A stretch of DNA of 64,000 nucleotides from Chloroflexota bacterium (GTDB taxonomy: Bacteria; Chloroflexota; Dehalococcoidia; SHYB01), in assembly GCA_016875535.1 (NCBI GenBank), contig VGPF01000002.1, positions 73,856-137,855 of the forward strand, read 5' to 3'. Under the pieces are notes generated by a model. It was not told where the DNA came from. It was given only the letters and a program-made list of their open reading frames with translations, and searched no databases. Position 1 is the stretch's first letter; each line of letters starts with the position of its first letter. Shown here in pieces: positions 3,686 through 43,245 of this stretch. The position numbers were made by a program, and so were the translations under genes.

Positions 3686-3720
3686 AAAGAAAAGGCCCCC
3701 GAGAACCGGGGGCCTTTTTG
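3686..3720. terminator. bidirectional intrinsic terminator between convergent genes
   Basis: AAAGAAAA-GGCCCCCG-agaa-CCGGGGGCC-TTTTT: perfect GC hairpin flanked by A-tract and T-tract. Confidence 0.65.
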
Positions 3721-3728
3721 CACTCTCT

Positions 3729-5990
3729 TTAGCGGGGGCCTCTATCGCGGAAGGGAGGCCTGCCGCCGCCATCGCCGCGCGGCGGGCCGCGGGGGCCGCG
3801 ATCCCCGTAGGGGCGCGGGCCGCGGTCACCGTAGGGCCTGGGCCCGCGGTCTTCCCGCGGGCCGCGATCCTCGCGGGGGCCGCCGTCGCTCACGCGCGCG
3901 CCGGAGCTTTGGAGGCCTTCTGAAAGGGCGCGCTTCGATAGGTTGATGCGCCCCATCCGGTCAATCTCCGTCACCATCACCGTGATCTCGTCGCCCACCT
4001 TCACCACATCTTCCACGCGGTTGACCCGCTCGGTGGAAAGCTCGCTCACGTGGACCAAGCCCTCCTTGCCGGGCAGGATCTCCACGAATGCGCCGAAGGT
4101 CATGATGCGCGTCACCTTGCCGGTGTAGATCGTGCCGACCTCCACCTCGCGGGTGAGCCCTTGGATGATCTCGATGGCCTTGCGCGTCCCCTCTTCCGTC
4201 GGCGAGCCGATGAAGACGGTGCCGTCGTCCTCGATGTCCACGGATGCGCCCGTCTGCTCGATGATGGAGCGGATCATCTTGCCGCCTGGGCCGATGACCG
4301 CGCCGATCTTCTCCGGGTTGATGCTGATGCGCGTCATGCGCGGCGCGTACTTGCTCATCTCCGTGCGCGGCTGGGCGATGGCCTCATGCATCTTGCCCAG
4401 GATGAACATCCGGGCCTCATGGGCCTGGGCCAGAGCCTCCGTCATGATGCCCATGGTCAGGCCCTTGATCTTGATATCCATCTGCAGCGCCGTGACGCCC
4501 TTGGCCGTGCCGGCCACCTTGAAGTCCATATCGCCCAGGTGGTCTTCGATGCCCTGGATGTCCGTCAGCACCTTGTACTTCTCGCCCTCCTTGATGAGCC
4601 CCATGGCGATGCCCGCCACAGGCGCCTTGATGGGCACGCCGGCGTCCATCAAGGAAAGGGTGCTGCCGCAGACGCTCGCCATGGAGGTGCTGCCGTTGGA
4701 GCTGAGCACCTCGGAGACGAGGCGGATGGTGTAGGGAAACTCCTCTTCGTTCGGGATCACCGCCAGCAGGGCGCGCTCGGCCAGCGCCCCGTGGCCGATC
4801 TCGCGGCGGCCGGAGCCGCCGATGCGCTTCGCCTCACCAGTCGAAAAGGGCGGCATGTTGTAATGGTGGAGGTAGCGCTTCTCCTCCTCCACGCCGATGC
4901 TGTCCAGCTTCTGCTTCTCGCCGATGGAGCCGAGCGTGGTGATGGTCAGCACCTGCGTCTGGCCCCGGCTGAAGAGTCCGGAGCCGTGGGTGCGCGGCAG
5001 GAGCCCCACCTTGCAGGAGATGGGCCGTATCTCCTTGGTGTTCCGGCCGTCGGGCCGGAGGCCGCGCTCCAGGATGGAGCGGCGGACCGCCGTCTTTTCT
5101 TGCTCGTCTACGGCCTCGTCAATCAGCTCCGACGGGAACTGGTCGCCGATCTTGGCCTTGATATCGGCCTTCAGATCAGCCAGGCCCCGCATCTCCTCCT
5201 GCTTGGTCACCGGCTTGAACATGAAGGTGTCCAGCCGGTTGCCGAAGTGCCCCGCCACCATGCGCTGGAGCTCTTCGGGAGCGGTCTTTTCTTCCCCAAA
5301 GGCGAACTTGGCCCTGCCGATCGCCTTGGACATCTCTTCGATGAGCTCGATGATTTCCTTGTTCACGATCTGGGCCATCTTCAGAGCCTGGAGCAGGATC
5401 TCCTCGGAGACCTCCTTCGCCCCGGCCTCCACCATCACAATGGCGTCCTTGGTCCCGGCCACCACGATGTCCAGCAGGCTGTTCTCCAGCTGCTGGTAGG
5501 TGGGGTTCACCACAAGCTGGTGGTTCACATAGCCGATGCGCACGCCGCTCACGGGCCCGTGGAACGGGATGTCCGAGATGGAGAGCGCGGCCGAGGCGCC
5601 GATGATCGCCAGGATGTCCGGGTCGTTCTCCTGGTCGGCGGAGAGGGTGGTGATGATGATCTGGACATCGTTCCGCAGGCCCTTGGGGAAGAGTGGGCGG
5701 AGCGGGCGGTCCACCAAGCGCATCGTCAGGATGGCGTCTTGGGTGGGGCGGCCCTCCCGGCGGAAGAAGCTGCCGGGGATCTTCCCGGCGGCGTAGAGGC
5801 GCTCTTCATAGTCCACCGTCAGCGGGAGGAAGTCTATCCCGGGGCGCGGCTGGACGGAGGCGACTGCGGTGACCAGGAGGATGGTATCGCCGTAGCGGAC
5901 GGTCACTGCGCCGTTGGCCTGGCCTGCAAGAGAGCCTGATTCGATCTGGAGAATCTTACCTGCGATTTCACGTTCAAAAACACGAGACAT
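3729..5990 (-). CDS. pnp: polyribonucleotide nucleotidyltransferase (PNPase) with Arg/Gly/Pro-rich repetitive C-terminal tail
   Basis: Two RNase PH domains, KH and S1 domains recognisable (…FHGPVSGVRIGY…, …GEKQ…GVTALQMDIK…, S1 VGTIYTGKVTRI…); tail GPREDRGPREDRGPRPYGDRGPRPYGDRGPRGPPRGDGGGRPP. Confidence 0.95.
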   Translation of the reverse strand: MSRVFEREIAGKILQIESGSLAGQANGAVTVRYGDTILLVTAVASVQPRPGIDFLPLTVDYEERLYAAGKIPGSFFRREGRPTQDAILTMRLVDRPLRPLFPKGLRNDVQIIITTLSADQENDPDILAIIGASAALSISDIPFHGPVSGVRIGYVNHQLVVNPTYQQLENSLLDIVVAGTKDAIVMVEAGAKEVSEEILLQALKMAQIVNKEIIELIEEMSKAIGRAKFAFGEEKTAPEELQRMVAGHFGNRLDTFMFKPVTKQEEMRGLADLKADIKAKIGDQFPSELIDEAVDEQEKTAVRRSILERGLRPDGRNTKEIRPISCKVGLLPRTHGSGLFSRGQTQVLTITTLGSIGEKQKLDSIGVEEEKRYLHHYNMPPFSTGEAKRIGGSGRREIGHGALAERALLAVIPNEEEFPYTIRLVSEVLSSNGSTSMASVCGSTLSLMDAGVPIKAPVAGIAMGLIKEGEKYKVLTDIQGIEDHLGDMDFKVAGTAKGVTALQMDIKIKGLTMGIMTEALAQAHEARMFILGKMHEAIAQPRTEMSKYAPRMTRISINPEKIGAVIGPGGKMIRSIIEQTGASVDIEDDGTVFIGSPTEEGTRKAIEIIQGLTREVEVGTIYTGKVTRIMTFGAFVEILPGKEGLVHVSELSTERVNRVEDVVKVGDEITVMVTEIDRMGRINLSKRALSEGLQSSGARVSDGGPREDRGPREDRGPRPYGDRGPRPYGDRGPRGPPRGDGGGRPPFRDRGPR

Positions 5991-7152: not shown

Positions 7153-9639
7153 CTATGCGCCCGGCCTCGCCGAGCCGTTTTCCTTTGCCTGCTCGCTCTG
7201 ACCTGTCGCCCCTGCCGCCTTGGCCGCTGCAGCCTGCGCCTTCGCGAACTCCTCCAGACGCTTCTCCACCAAATGATTGATGGTGCCTTCCGGGAAGTTG
7301 CCCTGCCCATCGCGCTCGCCAAAGGGAAGACCAGTCAAGAGCTCAACCCCCTCGGCGATTGTGCCGACGGCATAGATGTGGAACTGGCCTTGCGCCGCCG
7401 CCTCCACCAAATCCTCCCGCAACATCAAGTTGCGAACGTTCTGCTTGGGAATCATCACGCCCTGCTTGCCTGTGAGGCCGATAGCCTTGCAGACGTCAAA
7501 GTGCCCCTCTACCTTCTGGTTCACGCCGCCGATGGGCTGGACCTCCCCCTTTTGGTTCACGGAGCCGGTGACGGCGATGCCCTGCTTGAGCGGAACGCCG
7601 GAGAGGCTTGAGAGGATGGCGTAGATCTCCGTGGAAGAGGCGCTATCGCCGTCAATCCCCTCATACGATTGCTCAAAGCTCACCGTGGCAGAGATGGAGA
7701 GGGGGCGCTTCTGGGCATACATCCATCCCAGGTAGCCGCTGATCGTCAGCAGCCCCTTATCGAACGTCTTGCCGCTCATCTTAGCTTCCCGGTCTATGCT
7801 GATGACACCGCCGCGCCCAAGGAAGGTCTTTGCCGTGATGCGGCTGGGCTTGCCGAAGGAAACATCGCCCAGGTCAAAGACGGCCAGCCCGTTCACCTGG
7901 CCCACCTCGCTGTTCGTCACATCCACCATCAGCGTCCCTTCCTGGATCAGTTCCTGGATGCGCTCAGACACCAGGTTGGATCGGAAGATCTTCTGCTCCA
8001 GCGCCTTCTGGACGTGCGCAGCCTTCACCACGTCCGCGTTGTCCTTGCGCGCCCAGAAATCGGCCTCGATCAGCACATCCAGCAGGAGGCCGAAGCGCGT
8101 CGAAAGTTTGGTCTGGTCGGAGACGATGCGCGCCGCATACTCCACCACCTTCGCCACTCCCGAGGAATCAAGGTGCTTCAACTTGTTCTTCTCGCAGGCG
8201 CTGCAGATAAAACCGGCGTAGGCATCTAAGTTGTTCAGCGTGCGCGGGATCTGGTAGTCAAAGTCCGCCCTGACCTTGAAGGTCTCCCAAAAGTCTTCGT
8301 CGTACGCGGCAAGCAGGTGATAGAGCGAGGCATCCCCCGTCACCACTACCTTCACCTCAAGGGGCATCGGCTCCGGGCGGAGGGTCTGCGGCGCGATGAG
8401 CCCCATCGCATCCATGGGGTCCTCCAAGCGCACCTCCTTATTCTTCACCACGCGCTTGAAGGCCTCCCACACCAGCGGCGCCATCAGCACCTGGCGCATG
8501 TTGAGCACCAGGTAGCCGCCGTTCGCCTGGTGGAAGGCCCCCGGCTTGATAAGCGTGTGGTCGGTCACATAGGCGCCCATCAGGAACTTGCGGTCTATCC
8601 TGCCGAAGAGGTTGGCGTATGTGGGGTTGCTCTCTGAGACAATCGGCGGCCCCTTGGAGGCAGAGTTATCCACAAAGACGTTGACCACGAAGGGGACGAG
8701 CAGCTCCCGCTCCCGGGCGGCTCGCGCCGCCTCCAGCATGGGCGAGGAGGGCTGGCCGTCCTGCCCATCGCGGATGACGTCCATGTGGGAAAGGACGAAC
8801 TCCCGCAGGCGTTTGAGAAAGTCGCCCACCTCTTCATACTGGCCGAACTCCTTCTCCACCTCTTTGAAGGAGCCTGAAGTGGAAAACTCCGCCACCTTCC
8901 GGTCAAGCTCTTCCAGCCTGGCTCCCGCATCGCGCTCCACCTGCTGGGCGCCCTCCAGCGTCTGCTGCACAAGCCCGCTCAACGACCTGCGTCGCTCGTC
9001 CAGGGCGCGCTTCAGTTCGTCCGGGAACTGGGCGAACTCCTCTGGAGTCGCGGGGCGCCCCTCCTTCGTCATCGGCACCAGCGCGATGCCCATCGGCGTC
9101 AGCTGAACGGTGAAGCCCTTCGCCCGCGCCTCCCGGTCAAGCTCCTGAAAGAGGCGGCGCTGGTTCGTCTGCCCGCCCTCAAGCGTCGCCCGCCGCTCCG
9201 CCTGGTACTCCTCGCTGGAGAAGGCGGCGGCGGCGTGCTTCCGCAGGTCGTCTTCCAACTGCTCGAGCTTTGCCTTGAACTCGCGGCCCTTGCCCGCAGG
9301 CAGCTTCACGATGTTCGGCTTGTCAGTGTCTGCAAAGTTGAAGAGGTAGCACCAGTCCGGAGGAGAAGCCGCCGTCCCTGCCGCAATCTTCTTGGCCACC
9401 ACGTCCTCTAAGTGCTGCTTCACGATGGTGGACTTGCCCGTCCCCCCCAGGCCGGTGACAAAGATGTTGTACCCGGGCTGCTCCACCCCCAACCCGAACT
9501 CGATGGCGCCGATCGCCCGCACCTGCCCCACGAACTCCTGCAGCGGCACCAGCTCGTCCGTGCAGCGGAAGGAAAAGGCCTTCTGGTCGCAGCGCCACCG
9601 CAGCTTGTCAGGCGTCAGCTCCAGGTGGTGACCTTCCAT
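7153..9639 (-). CDS. Lon-like ATP-dependent protease (AAA+ ATPase plus C-terminal Lon S16 protease domain; COG1067 type)
   Basis: Walker A VTGLGGTGKST; C-terminal Lon protease fold with …GIDGDSASSTE… catalytic Ser context and …KVEGHFDVCKAIG…; AAAGGAG SD. Confidence 0.85.
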   Translation of the reverse strand: MEGHHLELTPDKLRWRCDQKAFSFRCTDELVPLQEFVGQVRAIGAIEFGLGVEQPGYNIFVTGLGGTGKSTIVKQHLEDVVAKKIAAGTAASPPDWCYLFNFADTDKPNIVKLPAGKGREFKAKLEQLEDDLRKHAAAAFSSEEYQAERRATLEGGQTNQRRLFQELDREARAKGFTVQLTPMGIALVPMTKEGRPATPEEFAQFPDELKRALDERRRSLSGLVQQTLEGAQQVERDAGARLEELDRKVAEFSTSGSFKEVEKEFGQYEEVGDFLKRLREFVLSHMDVIRDGQDGQPSSPMLEAARAARERELLVPFVVNVFVDNSASKGPPIVSESNPTYANLFGRIDRKFLMGAYVTDHTLIKPGAFHQANGGYLVLNMRQVLMAPLVWEAFKRVVKNKEVRLEDPMDAMGLIAPQTLRPEPMPLEVKVVVTGDASLYHLLAAYDEDFWETFKVRADFDYQIPRTLNNLDAYAGFICSACEKNKLKHLDSSGVAKVVEYAARIVSDQTKLSTRFGLLLDVLIEADFWARKDNADVVKAAHVQKALEQKIFRSNLVSERIQELIQEGTLMVDVTNSEVGQVNGLAVFDLGDVSFGKPSRITAKTFLGRGGVISIDREAKMSGKTFDKGLLTISGYLGWMYAQKRPLSISATVSFEQSYEGIDGDSASSTEIYAILSSLSGVPLKQGIAVTGSVNQKGEVQPIGGVNQKVEGHFDVCKAIGLTGKQGVMIPKQNVRNLMLREDLVEAAAQGQFHIYAVGTIAEGVELLTGLPFGERDGQGNFPEGTINHLVEKRLEEFAKAQAAAAKAAGATGQSEQAKENGSARPGA

Positions 9640-15255: not shown

Positions 15256-16209
15256 TCAGTCCCTGAGCCCGCGCCCGGTGATCGTCAGAAAGACGTCTTC
15301 CAAGTTGCCGCGCACCACTTCCAAGTGGTCTATCCGCCGCCCGTTGGCGTTCGACCACGCCATCAGCGCCGGCAGCGTCCGCGCCGCGTCCGAAGAGGCG
15401 AGTGTCAATGCGCCGTCCGCCTCCGCCTGCACATTCATCACCGCCTCAAGACCCTTGAACAGCTCCGGCGGCTGGGCCTCGGCAAGCTTGATGCGCACCT
15501 TGTACGGCACCGGTAGCCCTTTGATCAGGCGCTCCGGCGTATCCAGCGCCACGATGCGCCCGCGGTCCATGATCGCCACGCGCTGGCACAGGAACTGCGC
15601 CTCTTCCATATAGTGCGTCGTCAGCACCACGGTGCGCCCCTCGCCGTGGATGCGCTGGATGAACTCCCACAGGTTCCGGCGCGCCTGCGGGTCAAGCCCC
15701 GTCGTCGGCTCATCTAGAAATATGACCTCAGGGTCGTTCACCAGCGCCGCCGCTATGGCGAAGCGGTGCTGCTGCCCCCCGGAAAGCTTCACCACCGGCG
15801 TCTCGATCTTCTCCGCCAGCCCCACCTTCTCCAGCAGCTCGGCGGGAGAGAGCCGCTTCGCGTACAGCCTGCCGAACAGCTCCAATATCTCTCGGAGCTT
15901 CAAGTAGTCGAAGTAGGCCGAAGCCTGCAGCTGAACGCCGATGCGCTCCTTCGCCTTCCACGGCTCCGCCGCCGTGTCTATGCCCAGGACGCGCGTCTTC
16001 CCCGCTGTCGGCTCCTGCAGCCCTTCGATGCACTCCAGTGCCGTCGTCTTCCCCGCGCCGTTCGGCCCCAGGATGCCGAACACCTCTCCGCGCCTCACGG
16101 CAAAGGAAACATCCTTCACCGCTTCCAGCGAGCCGAAGCGCTTCGTCAGCCCCTCAACAACGATGTCATGTTCCGCGTGCTGGGTCGCCATGGGAAAATC
16201 GCACTCCAT
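15256..16209 (-). CDS. ABC transporter ATP-binding protein
   Basis: Walker A GPNGAGKTT, signature LSGGQQHR, Walker B VIFLDEPTTGLD; start taken at MECDFPMATQ (ORF track N-extension unlikely). Confidence 0.85.
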   Translation of the reverse strand: MECDFPMATQHAEHDIVVEGLTKRFGSLEAVKDVSFAVRRGEVFGILGPNGAGKTTALECIEGLQEPTAGKTRVLGIDTAAEPWKAKERIGVQLQASAYFDYLKLREILELFGRLYAKRLSPAELLEKVGLAEKIETPVVKLSGGQQHRFAIAAALVNDPEVIFLDEPTTGLDPQARRNLWEFIQRIHGEGRTVVLTTHYMEEAQFLCQRVAIMDRGRIVALDTPERLIKGLPVPYKVRIKLAEAQPPELFKGLEAVMNVQAEADGALTLASSDAARTLPALMAWSNANGRRIDHLEVVRGNLEDVFLTITGRGLRD

Positions 16210-16240
16210 TGTAGCAATGACTCGCCCCGCGGATATGATC

Positions 16241-16322
16241 TCCCCCTCTCTCGCCCTAAGGAGCGGCGCTGCCTCATCGCCACGACGAACCGGCCTACAC
16301 TGTCTGAGTTGCCCCAGCAACT
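16241..16322 (+). repeat. ~82-bp dispersed repeat, copy 1
   Basis: ccccctctctcgccctaaggagcggcgctgcctcatcgccacgacgaaccggcctacactgtctgagttgccccagcaac; ~83% identical to 18811-18894, includes GTTGC-n5-GCAAC hairpin. Confidence 0.5.
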
Positions 16323-16336
16323 CCTACCCCTTCTAC

Positions 16337-16366
16337 TTGACTTACCAAAACCCCTCTCCCTATCAT
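16337..16366 (+). promoter_or_regulatory. sigma70-type promoter for amidohydrolase operon (TTGACT-18-TATCAT)
   Basis: TTGACT 16337-16342, TATCAT 16361-16366; TAAGGAG SD before ATG 16410. Confidence 0.4.
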
Positions 16367-16409
16367 TTGCCCCCATTCCACGGCCTGAGTCTCTCTCTAA
16401 GGAGATGTC

Positions 16410-17630
16410 ATGAACTACGGATTCAAAGCCGTTGATTCCGATGGCCACGTCTCAGAAGCCCTCATCAACTGGGAAAAGGAACTCCCCGAGCGCTATCGCA
16501 GTTTCGTCGTCCGCTCACCCAACATCTACCACCAGCGCGATGCCAAGGGTCGCCTCGTCACAGGCCAGCTCACACCCAAAGACGCCTCCTTCGTCAACTT
16601 CAAAGGCGTCCGCCGCAACCCCGGCCCCGGCCATCCCAAGACCCACTTCCACGGCCCCGCCAGTGACATCCTCTCCATGCGCAGCCCGGAGATCACCGGC
16701 ATGTGGGACCCCCACGCCCGCATCAAGGACATGGAGCGCGCCGGCACCTGGGCCGCCGTCCTCTTCCCATCCCACGCCATCGCCCTCCCCACCTGGGACA
16801 ACGCCGGTCTAGCCGTCGCCGCGGCAAAAGTCTACAACAACTGGCTCGCCTCCTATTGCAAACCCTACCCTGATCGTCTCTTCGGCCTCGCCGTCCTGCC
16901 CCTCCAGCACCCGGAGGCCGCCGCCGAAGAGCTCCGCCGTTGCGTCACCCAGCTCGGCTTCCCCGGAGCCTGCGTCACCTCCAACATCCGCAACATCCCC
17001 CTCAGCGACCCGATGTTCGATACCCTCTGGGCGGAGGCCTCCCGGCTCAAAGTGCCCATCGGCATCCACGCGGCAACCGGCTCCAAGGGCATCGAATCCG
17101 TCGGCCAGGACCGCTTCGATCGCTTCATCCACACCCACATGGTCTCCCACTCCTTCGAGCAGATCTGCGCCGTCAGCGCCTTCATCCTCGATGGCGTCCT
17201 CGATCGCTTTCCCGGCATGCAGGTCGTCTTCTGCGAAGGCCAGGCAAGCTGGCTCCCCTGGTGGCTCTACCGCATGGAGGAGCACATGGAGAAGCTCCGT
17301 CCCCAGGCATATTGCAATGAAGAAGACCCCGCCGAATACTTCCGAAATGGCCGCTGCTACATCACCTGCGAATCGGACGAGCCCGCGCCTCTCCTCAACG
17401 CCGTCGCCGAGTTGGTGGGAGATAGTTGCGTCTGCTACGCCTCCGATTACGCCCACTGGGACACCTCCTGGCCCAGGGATGTCGAGATGATCGCCACAAA
17501 CCCTAAGCTCTCCACCGCCTACAAGCAGAAGATCCTTGTGGACAACCCCACTCGCGCCTTCAAACTGCCCATCGGCGGGAAGAACGGGAGCGCCGCCAAA
17601 GCGAAGCCTCCCGCCAAGGCACGAGCATGA
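16410..17630 (+). CDS. amidohydrolase-2 family (TIM-barrel metal-dependent hydrolase/decarboxylase) protein
   Basis: DSDGHV… and …YASDYAHWD… PF04909-type motifs. Confidence 0.88.
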   Translation: MNYGFKAVDSDGHVSEALINWEKELPERYRSFVVRSPNIYHQRDAKGRLVTGQLTPKDASFVNFKGVRRNPGPGHPKTHFHGPASDILSMRSPEITGMWDPHARIKDMERAGTWAAVLFPSHAIALPTWDNAGLAVAAAKVYNNWLASYCKPYPDRLFGLAVLPLQHPEAAAEELRRCVTQLGFPGACVTSNIRNIPLSDPMFDTLWAEASRLKVPIGIHAATGSKGIESVGQDRFDRFIHTHMVSHSFEQICAVSAFILDGVLDRFPGMQVVFCEGQASWLPWWLYRMEEHMEKLRPQAYCNEEDPAEYFRNGRCYITCESDEPAPLLNAVAELVGDSCVCYASDYAHWDTSWPRDVEMIATNPKLSTAYKQKILVDNPTRAFKLPIGGKNGSAAKAKPPAKARA

Positions 17631-18769
17631 CAAAGCCCGTCATCGTCTCCAGCGACTCCCACGTCGTCGAGCCGCCCGACCTCTGGACCAAGGGCATCGA
17701 GAAGGCCTACCGCGACCGCGCACCCCGCGTGGACTATAACGACGAAGGCGATTGGTGGGTCTGCGACGGCCTCTGGCTCATGTCCATGACCGGCGGCACG
17801 GACGCCGGCTTCCGTTTCGAAAGCCTGGAGAAGATGCGCCGCGAGGCCAAGTTCTCGGAGGTCGTCAAAGGTGGCTACATCGCAAGCGAAAAGCTTAAGG
17901 ACATGGACGCCGACGGCATCTACGGCGAAGTCGTCTACCCCACCACCGGCCTCGTCATGTGGCGGCTGGAAGATAGCCTCCTCTTCGATGCCGTCTGCCG
18001 CGCCTATAACACCTGGATTGCCGATTTCTGCAAGGAGGATCCCAAGCGCATCAAAGCCGTCGCTATGATCAATACCGATGATGTCGCCGCCGGTGTCGCG
18101 GAGCTCCAGCGCGCCGCCAAGCTCGGCCTCGCCGGGGCCATGATCAGCGTCAATCCCGGCGATCGCGATCAGTACAGCCAGCCTAAGTACGAGCCCCTCT
18201 GGGCCGCCGCGCAAGACGCCCAGCTCCCCCTGACGCTCCACATCGGCACCCACCGCGCCAGGCAAGGCGCCAACTCGCCCATCCGCATCCGCGAGCGGGC
18301 GCGCAACATGATGTCATCGCCGCCCTTCACCTCAACCGCCGCCCACTGGTTCCAGGTCTCCGTCGCCCACATGATCTTCTCCGGCGTCTTTGACCGCTTC
18401 CCCAAGCTCCAGGTCGTCTCCCTGGAGCATCGCGCCTCCTGGGCGCCGCACTTCCTCACCGCCATGGACTACGAATACACTCAGCGCCCGCCGAGCCCCG
18501 ATTGGCCGCGCTTCCGCAGCGCCTCCCTCCCCAGCGATTTCTTCCGGACCAACATCGCCCTCAGCTTCCAGGAAGACGTCCTCGCCGTCCAGCAGCGCCA
18601 CCTCATCGGCATGGACTGCCTCACCTGGGGCGACGACTACCCCCACCCGGAAGGCACATTCCCCAGGAGCCGGGAACGCCTCGCCCTCATGTTCGCAGGC
18701 GTCCCCGAAGCGGACAAAGCCAAGATCCTCGGCGCCAACGCCGCTCGCATCTACCGCTTCGCCTTGTAG
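17627..18769 (+). CDS. amidohydrolase-2 family protein (paralog, translationally coupled)
   Basis: SSDSHVVEP… / …WGDDYPHPEG…; ATGA overlap with upstream gene. Confidence 0.88.
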   Translation: MTKPVIVSSDSHVVEPPDLWTKGIEKAYRDRAPRVDYNDEGDWWVCDGLWLMSMTGGTDAGFRFESLEKMRREAKFSEVVKGGYIASEKLKDMDADGIYGEVVYPTTGLVMWRLEDSLLFDAVCRAYNTWIADFCKEDPKRIKAVAMINTDDVAAGVAELQRAAKLGLAGAMISVNPGDRDQYSQPKYEPLWAAAQDAQLPLTLHIGTHRARQGANSPIRIRERARNMMSSPPFTSTAAHWFQVSVAHMIFSGVFDRFPKLQVVSLEHRASWAPHFLTAMDYEYTQRPPSPDWPRFRSASLPSDFFRTNIALSFQEDVLAVQQRHLIGMDCLTWGDDYPHPEGTFPRSRERLALMFAGVPEADKAKILGANAARIYRFAL

Positions 18770-18810
18770 CGCCGAGGCAAGTCTTTCGATTCGTCGCACC
18801 CGGGTAGAGG

Positions 18811-18894
18811 TGCGCCCCCTCTCGCCCTGAGGAGCGGCCACGCCTCATCGCCACGACGAACGGACCTACGCCGTGTGGGTTGCCCCCGCAACCC
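18811..18894 (+). repeat. ~82-bp dispersed repeat, copy 2
   Basis: gccccctctcgccctgaggagcggccacgcctcatcgccacgacgaacggacctacgccgtgtgggttgcccccgcaac; same orientation as copy 1. Confidence 0.5.
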
Positions 18895-19161
18895 AAATCC
18901 TCCTGGTAGGGGCTGGCCTTCCCCCAGGGCTCCGATTTCAACGGAGAGGCCAGCCCCTCCCCGTCGGGCGCACCACGCGCCCCTCTCCACCCCATTCCCC
19001 TGGGTTGCCCCCCAACCCAGCGCGCACTGGGCTGCACAGCAGCCCCTATCCCTCCCTTCTCAGGGGAGGGACCAAGGTCGAGTCTTCGAGACCCCGATGC
19101 GGCATCGGGGGAGAGGTCTCCCCTGAAAACACCGGCCTCTCCCAACCACGCCGCACACCGC

Positions 19162-19190
19162 TTGACACAGAAGCCTACTATGCATAGTAT
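19162..19190 (+). promoter_or_regulatory. near-consensus sigma70 promoter inside non-coding region (TTGACA-17-TAGTAT)
   Basis: TTGACA 19162-19167, 17-nt spacer, TAGTAT 19185-19190; no ORF follows for ~600 nt. Confidence 0.45.
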
Positions 19191-19878
19191 TGTCTTGTGA
19201 GCGTAGAGATACGCCCACGCCTTCGCCAGGACAGAGAGCCGGGGAGGCGCAAAAACTGGCTGTGTTCCTGGCTCCATGGGCGTGGAACCGGCTGGCCGAG
19301 CGCCTCCCCTTTTCTTTGCCCGCGACCGGGGTCGGCCGCCCTGAGTCACAATGGCGCGGGCACAGAGCGTCGCGCGGGCGGCTTCGGAGCGAAACTACGT
19401 CGGAGCAGAATAATGGCGGCGGTCCGGTAACCACAATCGAATAGCTCACACGCGAGATTGACCGGCAGACGTGAGTCGCTGTGCATGCTTGAAAGAGCGC
19501 CCTGGCCGTTGCAGCCTCGGCCGCAGCCTCCAGGTCGCACCGGCTCAGGGCACCGTGGGCAAGCTCTGGTTTCTACCAGGGCATGCAGCGTCGGCTGTCG
19601 AAAGGTCGGCGGCCGGCGCGTTAGAGTCTCGCAATCTCGGCCCGAGATGCATGTCCCATTTCCCAAACCACCAATAGCAGTTCGAACCACATACCGGACC
19701 GCCCGCGCGACGCTCAAAATCACCGGACAGGAACAACACAAAAGGAGGGAAAACAAAAATGTAGGGGCAACCCGGCGCCTGCCCTGAAGCTCAGCGAAAA
19801 GTGAGGGTGATTGCGTTCCCCGGCACTTGGCGGCGACGCTGCACATCGCTAGGATGTGGCTGTAAAAGCCGCATCCCC

Positions 19879-20628
19879 ATGCCCCACACGCCCCACATCG
19901 CACAGAAATGCCTCTCCCTCTCAGGAGACGGCGCTGAACTCCACGGCGAGCTCTTCACACCGGAAAGCGCTCTGCCGCTCCCCGGCGTCGTCCTCCTCCA
20001 TGACCGGCACGGCCTCACAGGCCATGTCCGTGACACCGCGCGTCGCCTGGCGGCGCAGGGCTATGCCGTTCTCGTCTTCGATCTCTTCTCCCGGGGCGAT
20101 GGCGACCGGCAAGACCCGCCCTCCAGGGAACAATCGCGCAAACTGTCCTTTTTCCCTGATGAGCGCGCCGTCCGCGATGTCCAGGCCGCCCTGGCTCGCC
20201 TTCGCAGCGAACCCGGTGTTGACCCCAAGCGCATTGCCCTGGGAGGCTTCTCCTTCGGCGCGCGCTATAGCCTCCTCACCGCCGGGACCGGCGAAGATGT
20301 GGCCGCCCTCTTCCTCTTCTACCCCGTCATCATCTATCCTGAGCTGCACGCCAGCCGCCCCAGGCAGCCCCTCTCCCTGGTGCACGCCATCAAATGCCCC
20401 GTCATGACCGTCTTCGGAGAGAAAGACTGGATGGTGCCGCTCCCGCACCAGACCTTCATGGAAGCGCTCCGCAAAGGCCACGGCCTGCCCCGCGAATGTA
20501 TCCGCTACCCCAGCGTCGGGCACGGCTTCTTCAACGAGGAGATCAAGCAATACGATAAGGCGGTCGCGGAAGACGCCTTCGCCAGGCTCATCGCTTTCCT
20601 GGAGCGGCATATCAAGCGCACAGGCTAA
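19879..20628 (+). CDS. dienelactone hydrolase family protein
   Basis: …VVLLHDRHGL…, …IALGGFSFGA… (nucleophile elbow), …VGHGF… alpha/beta hydrolase; start taken at MPHTPH (GTG at 19801 possible). Confidence 0.8.
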   Translation: MPHTPHIAQKCLSLSGDGAELHGELFTPESALPLPGVVLLHDRHGLTGHVRDTARRLAAQGYAVLVFDLFSRGDGDRQDPPSREQSRKLSFFPDERAVRDVQAALARLRSEPGVDPKRIALGGFSFGARYSLLTAGTGEDVAALFLFYPVIIYPELHASRPRQPLSLVHAIKCPVMTVFGEKDWMVPLPHQTFMEALRKGHGLPRECIRYPSVGHGFFNEEIKQYDKAVAEDAFARLIAFLERHIKRTG

Positions 20629-35241: not shown

Positions 35242-36735
<1,494 letters not shown>

Positions 36736-41523: not shown

Positions 41524-41552
41524 ATTATAGTTTAGACCCCACCCGGTGTAAA
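41524..41552 (-). promoter_or_regulatory. sigma70 promoter for rpsA (TTTACA-17-TATAAT)
   Basis: minus-strand TTTACA (41547-41552), TATAAT (41524-41529); GAAGG SD before ATG. Confidence 0.5.
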
Positions 41553-41699: not shown

Positions 41700-41822
41700 G
41701 TGCCCTGGCAGTGGCATATTTTCCGCGGAGACTTCCGTCCCTAGTATCGTCTGCGCTGGTGCGTTTCACTTCCGTGTTCGGGATGGGAACGGGTGGGTCC
41801 ACACCGCTCTGACCACCAAAGC
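41700..41822 (-). rRNA. rrf: 5S ribosomal RNA (solo, not adjacent to 23S)
   Basis: Minus strand GCTTTGGTGGTCAGAGCGGTGTGGACCCACCCGTTCCCATCCCGAACACGGAAGTGAAACGCACCAGCGC…CTGCCAGGGCAC; matches 5S helix I-V pattern and the conserved CCGAAC…GAAGTGAAACG block. Confidence 0.9.
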
Positions 41823-43170: not shown

Positions 43171-43245
43171 GGGGCTGTAGCTCAGCGGTAGAGCATCCGG
43201 TTTGCATCCGGGGGGTCAGGGGTTCAAATCCCCTCAGCTCCACCA
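43171..43245 (+). tRNA. tRNA-Ala (anticodon TGC), CCA encoded
   Basis: Cloverleaf: acceptor GGGGCTG/CAGCTCC with G3:U70 Ala identity pair, D-arm GCTC-AGCGGTA-GAGC, anticodon loop TTTGCAT, T-arm AGGGG-TTCAAAT-CCCCT. Confidence 0.92.

Follow-up and report, generated by a model that had tools for sequence, protein, structure and literature searches.

The DNA analysed in this study is a stretch of 64,000 nucleotides from contig VGPF01000002.1 of an uncultured freshwater Chloroflexota lineage (hereafter the window, to whose positions all coordinates refer). Between the genes for amidohydrolase 2 and a dienelactone hydrolase-family protein (DLH) it contains a non-coding spacer, 18770-19878, which is the subject of this report. 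Most of this spacer is an insertion, which consists of two parts: a mosaic of hairpins that varies among strains, and a core that begins at a good match to a sigma-70 promoter and folds, on one strand, far better than expected. The reading that we favour, with a probability of about one half, is that of a composite insertion, in which a mosaic resembling repetitive extragenic palindromes (REPs) and bacterial interspersed mosaic elements (BIMEs) sits at the tail of the amidohydrolase operon and is followed by a promoter-driven, structured RNA on the + strand, likely a leader of the DLH gene. The following features frame the spacer:

17627-18769, + strand: amidohydrolase 2 (PF04909), with its stop codon at 18767-18769
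18782-19823 (boundaries +/- 10 nt), no strand assigned: non-coding insertion of ~1,042 nt, between the amidohydrolase-2 stop with a short ancestral spacer and the DLH promoter
19827-19855, + strand: the DLH gene's own promoter, TTGGCG-17-TAGGAT, outside the insertion, with the same position and sequence in contigs L021, L014 and L016
19879-20628, + strand: DLH gene, with its ATG at 19879 and a 249-aa product that was matched exactly in the protein collection

The spacer lacks any sign of coding. In 150-nt windows over 18725-19850, the spread of GC content among codon positions is 0.04-0.2 and mostly below 0.12, compared with 0.3-0.5 in the neighbouring genes, and the six-frame translations of 18770-19878 have no Pfam match at E <= 1. 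No other stretch of the 64 kb without coding periodicity is as long, except for the 16S rRNA gene. An earlier note on this DNA had found no protein-like frame here and had named an open reading frame (ORF) broken by a frameshift as an alternative to its view; the missing three-base periodicity and the missing Pfam matches bear out the former and speak against the latter. Exact look-ups of the spurious ORFs in the protein collection returned a sole record, for a 196-aa ORF across the hairpin array, which leads to the variant contig L024.

An insertion upstream of the DLH gene

The spacer was compared with contigs from three levels of relatedness. Ten contigs (L001-L009 and L024) belong to the window's own population and are 99.5-100% identical to it over the aligned parts. 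A relative with ~95% DNA identity was obtained from the Logan runs ERR14789950/51 and ERR14822406; its contig L023 corresponds to 18770-18894 and its contigs L018-L020 to 19670-19878. More distant relatives are represented by L021/L022, in which amidohydrolase 2 is 87% and DLH 67% identical, and by L014/L015 and L016/L017.

In the distant relatives the gene order is kept: CoA-transferase, methyltransferase, fatty-acid desaturase, two ABC-transporter genes, amidohydrolase 1, amidohydrolase 2, DLH, and 5-enolpyruvylshikimate-3-phosphate (EPSP) synthase. The spacer before DLH measures 62 nt in L021/L022, 60 nt in L016, and ~70 nt in L014, the last counted from the stop codon of an amidohydrolase 2 remnant. 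It consists of the stop codon, 15-40 nt, the promoter CACTTGGCG-17-TAGGAT/TAGAAT, and the ATG of DLH. When 18782-19823 is cut out, the window aligns colinearly to L021, L014, and L016 through the stop codon, spacer, CACTTGGCG, TAGGAT, and ATG; therefore, the DLH promoter was separated from the stop codon by an insertion of ~1,040 nt. The ~95% relative contains the two ends of the insert, the left one in L023 and the right one in L018-L020. On this alignment the spacer is an ancestral gap of 60-70 nt plus a young, lineage-specific insertion of ~1,040 nt, rather than an old intergenic region, and among the relatives compared the insertion is shared only with the ~95% relative. By eye, the insertion ends (~18782-18810 and ~19795-19823) show no terminal inverted repeat and no target-site duplication.

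The remnant in L014 is an observation in its own right. At L014:6966-7083, which corresponds to 17627-18769 of the window, amidohydrolase 2 is cut to ~120 nt, and its first ~12 codons (MAKPTIISSDSH) are fused to its last ~25 (...GGNAARMYHFT*) by an internal deletion of nearly the whole gene. A scan of contigs with the DLH protein as query returned only matches of 25-29% identity, in unrelated bacteria.

The hairpin mosaic

The left part of the insertion, at about 18800-19150, is an array of short GC-rich palindromes, some of which recur upstream of amidohydrolase 1:

18803-18897, + strand: ~82-nt repeat (family A), 85% identical to 16240-16323 and ending in a small hairpin, GGGTTGCCCCCGCAACCC (18877-18894)
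16240-16323, + strand: second copy of the ~82-nt repeat, upstream of the amidohydrolase-1 promoter, missing from the relatives L021 and L014
18905-18961, no strand assigned: GTAG-headed 57-nt hairpin (family B), GGTAGGGGCTGGCCT...AGGCCAGCCCCTCCC, with arms of 15 nt (18905-18919 and 18947-18961) that are 93% complementary, and GTAG at 18906
19000-19020, no strand assigned: second copy of the small hairpin (family C), CTGGGTTG-CCCCC-CAACCCAG
19020-19146, no strand assigned: strain-variable block, holding three short palindromes at 19050-19123
19050-19070, no strand assigned: hairpin CCCTCCC..GGGAGGG, inside the variable block
19092-19110, no strand assigned: hairpin CCCCGATGCGGCATCGGGG, inside the variable block
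19108-19123, no strand assigned: hairpin GGGGAGAGGTCTCCCC, inside the variable block

All of the sequence features listed in the earlier note were recovered here, at the positions it gave or within 1-2 nt of them. They include its chain of five GC hairpins in the first part of the spacer (at 18905-18961 and 19000-19123) and its motif GGGTTGCCCC(C/G)CAACCC, which it had counted twice in the spacer (18877 and 19002) and which has a third copy in the window at 16306. The dispersed 82-bp repeat that it described is real, but it has only one other copy, the one at 16240-16323 with 85% identity. The shared modules are confined to the two spacers that flank the amidohydrolase pair, within the 64 kb and ~15 kb beyond its ends. 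The octamer GTAGGGGC occurs seven times in the window, compared with 1.7 expected; two or three of the seven sites are followed by a hairpin, and GTAG is absent from the hairpins labelled C, D, E, and F. Compared with shuffled sequences, the array folds better on both strands (z = -5.4 and -3.7), as expected of DNA palindromes.

The array varies among strains: contigs that share 99.9% or more identity in their genes represent at least four structural haplotypes. In L008, a 77-nt block with a second B hairpin, perfectly closed as GTAGGGG...CCCCTAC, stands in for 19020-19146; this contig has a change at 19012 and departs from the window after 19019, and L003 has three changes, at 19012, 19020, and 19022. 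L024 lacks 18785-18814 and carries eight single-nucleotide polymorphisms (SNPs) in 18778-18896, four of them within the family A copy (18832-18896), and none over the next 1,574 nt. In the ~95% relative, from which the family A copy is ~15% diverged, the 82-nt unit of L023 is followed by a different GTAG hairpin, with the related unit GTAGGGGCGGTCCGATTACATCGGAC, and a hairpin variant CCCGAT..ATCGGG is placed upstream of amidohydrolase 1. Several contigs end inside the hairpin array or the spacer, and hairpin-dense spacers of this sort break assemblies.

Similar events are seen in the spacer upstream of amidohydrolase 1 (16190-16410), which has gained ~100 nt, the 82-nt repeat included, relative to L021 and L014, and which carries other hairpin modules in L023. 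Because of these gains and swaps, both spacers flanking the amidohydrolase pair are sites of repeat turnover. No further module copies were found in the relatives' contigs, and a search of the metagenome collection with the core of the 82-nt repeat gave two chance matches only, both inside coding DNA. Elsewhere in the window, at 3780-3890, there are tandem GC-rich hairpin repeats with units ~24 and 42 nt apart and CCGTAGGG motifs, located just past a terminator-like hairpin with a T-run (~3695-3720) and overlapping the 3' end of an ORF at 3729-5990 on the - strand; they may represent another GTAG-type repeat cluster.

The promoter-bearing core

The right part of the insertion has a different make-up. 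Its features are:

19162-19190, + strand: sigma-70-type promoter TTGACA-17-TAGTAT, score 10/12, with a predicted start near 19197
19197-19771, + strand: core, a candidate structured RNA of ~575 nt, either an independent RNA or a long leader continuing into DLH
19365-19381 and 19699-19715, + strand: perfect 17-nt long-range inverted repeat, closing a domain of ~317 nt
19500-19660, + strand: hairpin cluster, with 120-nt windows at z -5.4 and -3.9 on the + strand compared with -2.1 and -1.0 on the - strand
19744-19764, + strand: start-stop element GGAGG-10 nt-ATG-TAG (GGAGG 19744-19748, ATG 19759-19761, TAG 19762-19764), identical in the ~95% relative
19761-19784 (hairpin 19765-19784), no strand assigned: GTAG-headed hairpin GTAG-GGGCA-ACCCGGCGCC-TGCCC, followed on the - strand by a T-run and scoring as terminator-like there

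The plus-strand promoter that the earlier note had described, overlapping a palindrome, is present at 19162-19190; the perfect 14-nt palindrome TACTATGCATAGTA (19176-19189) spans the -10 hexamer. It is the sole TTGACA-17-TAGTAT site in 1.6 kb, compared with 0.1 expected. The other sigma-70 matches of at least 10/12 that were checked on the gene map, at 16337 (amidohydrolase 1), 27876, and 36861 (16S rRNA), lie directly upstream of genes and in the correct orientation, and a match at 41552 is read likewise. Since each of the checked matches precedes a real gene, the one at 19162 is credible.

Downstream of the promoter, the sequence 19197-19770 folds on the + strand with -273 kcal/mol, compared with -229 +/- 6 for dinucleotide shuffles (z = -6.9). 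The - strand gives z = -1.95, and coding controls (n = 4, both strands) range from +1.0 to -2.0; a second folding run of the core gave z values of -7.0 (+) and -3.2 (-). In the predicted structure, 15 of the 17 pairs of the long-range helix have probabilities of 0.77-1.0, and a hairpin at 19588-19619 contains 14 pairs, three of them G-U. This strand asymmetry, which DNA palindromes should not show, points to G-U-dependent pairing, i.e., to RNA on the promoter's strand. Judged by the credible promoter, this strand-specific folding, and a 3' end that changes more slowly than synonymous sites, 19162-19771 looks like a transcribed, structured RNA of the + strand.

Within the population, the core has a single SNP (19664). 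L006, L009, and L024 do not differ from the window in it, and other contigs have single SNPs only, L001 and L007 at 19664 and L008 at 19153, upstream of the promoter. The two variable sites of the core, 19664 and the position 19673 that differs in the ~95% relative, are both predicted to be unpaired. Three contigs break at one spot in the core, where L003 ends (19219) and L006 and L009 start (19225); a variant in the population or another left junction of the core may lie there.

The 3' end of the core is conserved. Next to the change at 19673, the 98 nt from 19674 to 19771 are identical in the ~95% relative (L018-L020), whereas third-codon positions of four neighbouring genes are 5.5-9.6% divergent, the left flank of the insert (18770-18894) is ~15% divergent, and the 50 nt past the core (19772-19822) are ~25% divergent. 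The probability of at most one change in 102 nt is ~0.002 at a neutral rate of 8%, as estimated from the third-position figures, and 0.0003 at 10%. These figures suggest that the core is under constraint, at least in its tail. The last ~110 nt are composed of 39% A, 32% C, 18% G, and 11% T, and the unpaired probability is 0.82 at 19716-19758.

This tail carries the Shine-Dalgarno (SD), ATG, and TAG element of the earlier note, whose sequence is as described; its reading as a designed element is weakened by the repeat next to it. The TAG falls in GTAGGGGC (19761-19768), which is the GTAG head of the next hairpin. Because the stop codon is part of this head, the juxtaposition of ATG and TAG is maybe a by-product of a repeat hairpin lying beside an A-rich stretch that resembles a ribosome-binding site, and the start-stop may be accidental. 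The stem at 19765-19784 is not kept in the ~95% relative, which has changes at 19772 and 19782. The ATG-TAG is in frame with DLH in the window, and a functional reading of this was dismissed because the ~95% relative has indels between the two.

On the far side of DLH, this gene (+) and the EPSP synthase gene aroA (-) converge with a 4-nt overlap at 20625-20628, so there is no room for a terminator between them. On the - strand, a terminator-like hairpin at 19784-19765, within the insertion, is found just beyond DLH's far end, and other, weaker consensus hits lie within aroA.

Searches in databases left the core without a relative. As the earlier note had expected, Rfam (4,227 models, release 15) placed no family in 18770-19878 when the whole window was searched at gathering score, and searches of the region at E <= 10 and E <= 5 gave chance-level matches only, the best being AS1726 with 25.7 bits compared with a gathering score of 50 (E 0.075-0.15). 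ARAGORN found no tRNA or tmRNA in the region, and PLSDB and INPHARED, searched with blastn in distant mode, gave no plasmid or phage match. When the stop-free - strand frame of the core was used as a pseudo-protein query, there was no match in the viral contigs and none in the JGI metagenome contigs, a weak negative as that collection also missed the window's own population. The same frame, compared by HMMER with 1.84 billion representatives, retrieved two repeat-rich or low-complexity proteins, both of which were rejected. A six-frame query of 1,951 aa against a set of 5.8 billion proteins scored nothing, with candidates capped at 8,000, which is probably uninformative owing to its low-complexity words. 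The viral contigs contained no match to the start-stop region or the B hairpin, and none to the long-range helix at gaps of 280-310, a range that does not include the true gap of 317. From these comparisons the core belongs to no described family. By eye, the motifs of integron attC sites, tRNA-like elements, and tmRNA-like elements do not fit the hairpins.

An origin of the core from an rRNA leader was also considered and rejected, as the sequences flanking the 16S and 5S genes do not resemble it. These genes are unlinked in the window. The 16S gene (35242-36735, -) stands alone, with its own promoter TTGACA-17-TATAGT (36861-36833) and a terminator at 35188-35169; the 5S gene (41703-41820, -) is likewise isolated, has a promoter of its own (41857-41829), and is followed by a hairpin and T-run; and there is no 23S gene in the 64 kb. 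An isolated tRNA-Ala(TGC) gene (43171-43245, +) lies on the strand opposite to 16S and 5S.

Interpretation and comparison with known systems

The earlier note had proposed a structured RNA or a graveyard of miniature inverted-repeat transposable elements (MITEs). Each half of that proposal partly fits, though each fits a different part of the insertion, the repeats the hairpin mosaic at 18800-19150 and the RNA the core at 19162-19771, and neither is proven. In the composite insertion that we favour, ~1,040 nt of non-coding DNA entered a 60-70-nt gap in a recent ancestor of the lineage. Its first part (~18800-19150) holds GC-rich palindromic modules, on this reading of the REP/BIME kind, which are gained, lost, and exchanged among strains and which, if transcribed at the tail of the amidohydrolase operon, would give stable 3' hairpins. 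In its second part (19162-19771), the sigma-70 promoter would start a + strand RNA near 19197, under possible control by the 14-nt palindrome over the -10 hexamer. This RNA is predicted to fold into a 5' hairpin domain and a ~317-nt domain closed by a helix of 15-17 bp, and to end in an unstructured A/C-rich tail with the SD sequence and AUG-UAG. Transcription would probably continue into DLH, which would thus have, besides its own conserved promoter, a stronger second one upstream and a long, structured, potentially regulatory leader.

Several points weigh against this interpretation. The leader is absent upstream of the orthologous DLH in L021/L022, L014/L015, and L016/L017, and as relatives with 87% protein identity do without the insert at this locus, DLH expression in general does not depend on it. 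Conservation was gauged by one pairwise comparison that covers the last ~100 nt of the core only, and the same pattern could result if the two lineages recombined recently. The core structure is a thermodynamic prediction from a single sequence and has no covariation support, because no homologue of the core was recovered. The perfect 17-nt inverted repeat accounts for part of the folding excess and might just as well belong to the DNA level, e.g., as a transposon end or an inverted duplication. No intrinsic terminator was found on the + strand from 19190 to the DLH gene; an independent RNA would have no defined 3' end, and the RNA would most likely be read through into DLH. As for the mosaic, no further copies of its modules were found in ~79 kb of the genome (the 64-kb window and ~15 kb beyond its ends) or in the metagenome and viral collections.

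The doubtful but best surviving alternative is that the insertion is neutral debris, in which small selfish or palindromic elements piled up. The promoter would then be left over or fortuitous, the 17-nt repeat would mark the dead ends of a miniature transposon, and the folding excess would come from nested palindromes. Such an origin would agree with the absence of the insert from the same locus in relatives, with the lack of a homologue in any collection searched, with the clear turnover of the adjoining hairpin array among strains, with the position of the start-stop TAG in a GTAG hairpin head, and with the missing + strand terminator. However, a folding asymmetry of -6.9 versus -1.95 is unexpected of DNA palindromes, as the true palindrome array is significant on both strands, and neutral debris does not easily explain 98 unchanged nucleotides at the 3' end next to 5.5-9.6% synonymous-site and 15-25% flanking-spacer divergence. 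Moreover, reading of the sequence around the 17-nt inverted repeat (19365/19715) revealed no target-site duplication, and real genes of this genome have promoters no better than this one. If the insertion is nevertheless debris, it follows that a long spacer with dense hairpins and a promoter, in a GC-rich metagenome-assembled genome, is by itself no evidence of a conserved RNA.

It is improbable, in our estimation, that the core is an independent, trans-acting non-coding RNA of ~575 nt, which binds ribosomes or some other partner with its exposed, A-rich SD-AUG-UAG tail and whose 3' end is made by Rho or by processing at the GTAG hairpin. The near-consensus promoter, which is like that of the 16S gene, and the strand-specific structure would suit such an RNA. 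So would the tail, which is C/A-rich, G-poor, and unpaired (0.82) and to which, start-stop included, the known conservation applies; in E. coli, start-stops with a function have been documented (bioRxiv 10.1101/520783). Nevertheless, this RNA would have no terminator, no homologues, and no known target, and it would be confined to one shallow lineage. In addition, the AUG-UAG overlaps the GTAG head of the repeat hairpin and may be accidental, and 10 nt separate GGAGG from AUG, whereas the ribosome-binding sites of the neighbouring genes, judged by eye, have ~4-5 nt.

A more far-reaching reading, to which we give a similarly small chance, regards the core as a young, lineage-restricted structured RNA gene that arrived by insertion and whose conserved and unpaired tail, A/C-rich and bearing a strong SD sequence with AUG-UAG, is a working ribosome-loading site that controls the fate of the RNA (e.g., by protection from Rho) or the read-through into DLH. 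If this is true, a large structured RNA would have been caught near its birth rather than as a member of an ancient conserved family.

It seems less probable still that the core is the leftover 5' control region of an acquired gene, comprising promoter, operator palindrome, long leader, ribosome-binding site, and ATG, whose coding part was later deleted so that the ATG became fused to the next hairpin. The order of the parts is that of the start of a regulated gene, no source of the insertion is detectable in the window, and the ATG-TAG ends exactly where the match to the ~95% relative stops (19771). Yet no related combination of leader and gene was found in any collection searched, a leader of 560 nt would be unusually long, and a useless remnant would not be expected to be conserved below the synonymous rate. 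Finally, a protein-coding gene in decay, or an RNA that has diverged within a known family (RNase P, tmRNA, signal recognition particle RNA, 6S, riboswitch, group I/II intron, OLE, etc.), is hardly credible, as only the size of the gap speaks for it and as no 150-nt window has three-base periodicity, no Pfam match at E <= 1 and no Rfam match at gathering score exist, and no tRNA or tmRNA is called by ARAGORN.

Should the core be a working RNA, a single insertion step would have given a gene a new upstream promoter together with a large structured leader. The core would then also be a rare example of a structured RNA with several hundred nucleotides in a very shallow lineage, and would bear on how such RNAs arise.

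Large structured non-coding RNAs of bacteria, such as OLE, GOLLD, ROOL, and raiA, lie in long GC-rich intergenic regions and are all represented in Rfam. The core is like them in its length of several hundred nucleotides, in its lack of an ORF, in its strong promoter, and in its multi-hairpin fold with long-range closing pairing. However, none of these families matches the core in Rfam, and they are defined by conservation and covariation across many genomes, whereas the core has been seen in one shallow lineage only.

MITEs and other small repeats can carry outward-facing promoters, as do the Correia elements of Neisseria. Like a MITE of the Correia type, the insert is non-coding, rich in inverted repeats, and located just upstream of a gene, with a strong promoter that points into this gene. 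It differs in its 1,040 nt, which by eye have neither terminal inverted repeats nor target-site duplication at their ends, and in the position of the promoter, which is 690 nt from the gene and not at the edge of the insert. Presence/absence variation of the sort seen with MITEs applies to sub-modules (L008 and L024) and, with respect to the relatives, to the whole insert; multiple copies are seen only for the 82-nt repeat, of which there are two.

Working start-stops, in which a stop codon comes right after AUG, have been described inside genes of E. coli, where they were shown to bind ribosomes (Meydan et al., bioRxiv 10.1101/520783). The element at 19744-19764 resembles them in its SD-like sequence, AUG, immediate stop, and accessible A-rich context. 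In contrast to the E. coli cases, which are inside genes and come with ribosome binding, it is known from its sequence alone, and as its stop codon doubles as the head of a repeat hairpin, a chance juxtaposition is plausible.

A GTAG tag beside a palindrome is the hallmark of one REP superfamily (PMC3733652), and REPs that form mosaics downstream of genes are known as BIMEs (PMC2817692). The hairpin part of the insertion shares much with them: its short, GC-rich, imperfect palindromes can form stem-loops, stand head to tail outside genes and directly downstream of an operon, and turn up in varied arrangements that differ between near-identical strains. Two hairpins of the insertion, at 18906 and 19761, bear an unpaired 5' GTAG, and one variant is closed as GTAGGGG...CCCCTAC. 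The differences are in number (one other site with shared modules in ~79 kb, compared with more than 100 classical REPs per genome), in the size of the B hairpin (57 nt, compared with 20-40 bp in typical REPs), and in the tags, as most modules here have neither GTAG nor CGTC. No RAYT transposase gene was seen, although no search aimed at one was made, and the Chloroflexota are not among the phyla best known for REPs. The resemblance to REPs and BIMEs is clear, while membership is not shown. All components of the spacer are of known kinds, namely palindromic repeat mosaics, promoter-bearing inserts, and structured non-coding RNA, and the hairpin mosaic would extend REP/BIME-like dynamics, with gain and loss at the strain level, to an uncultured freshwater lineage of the Chloroflexota.

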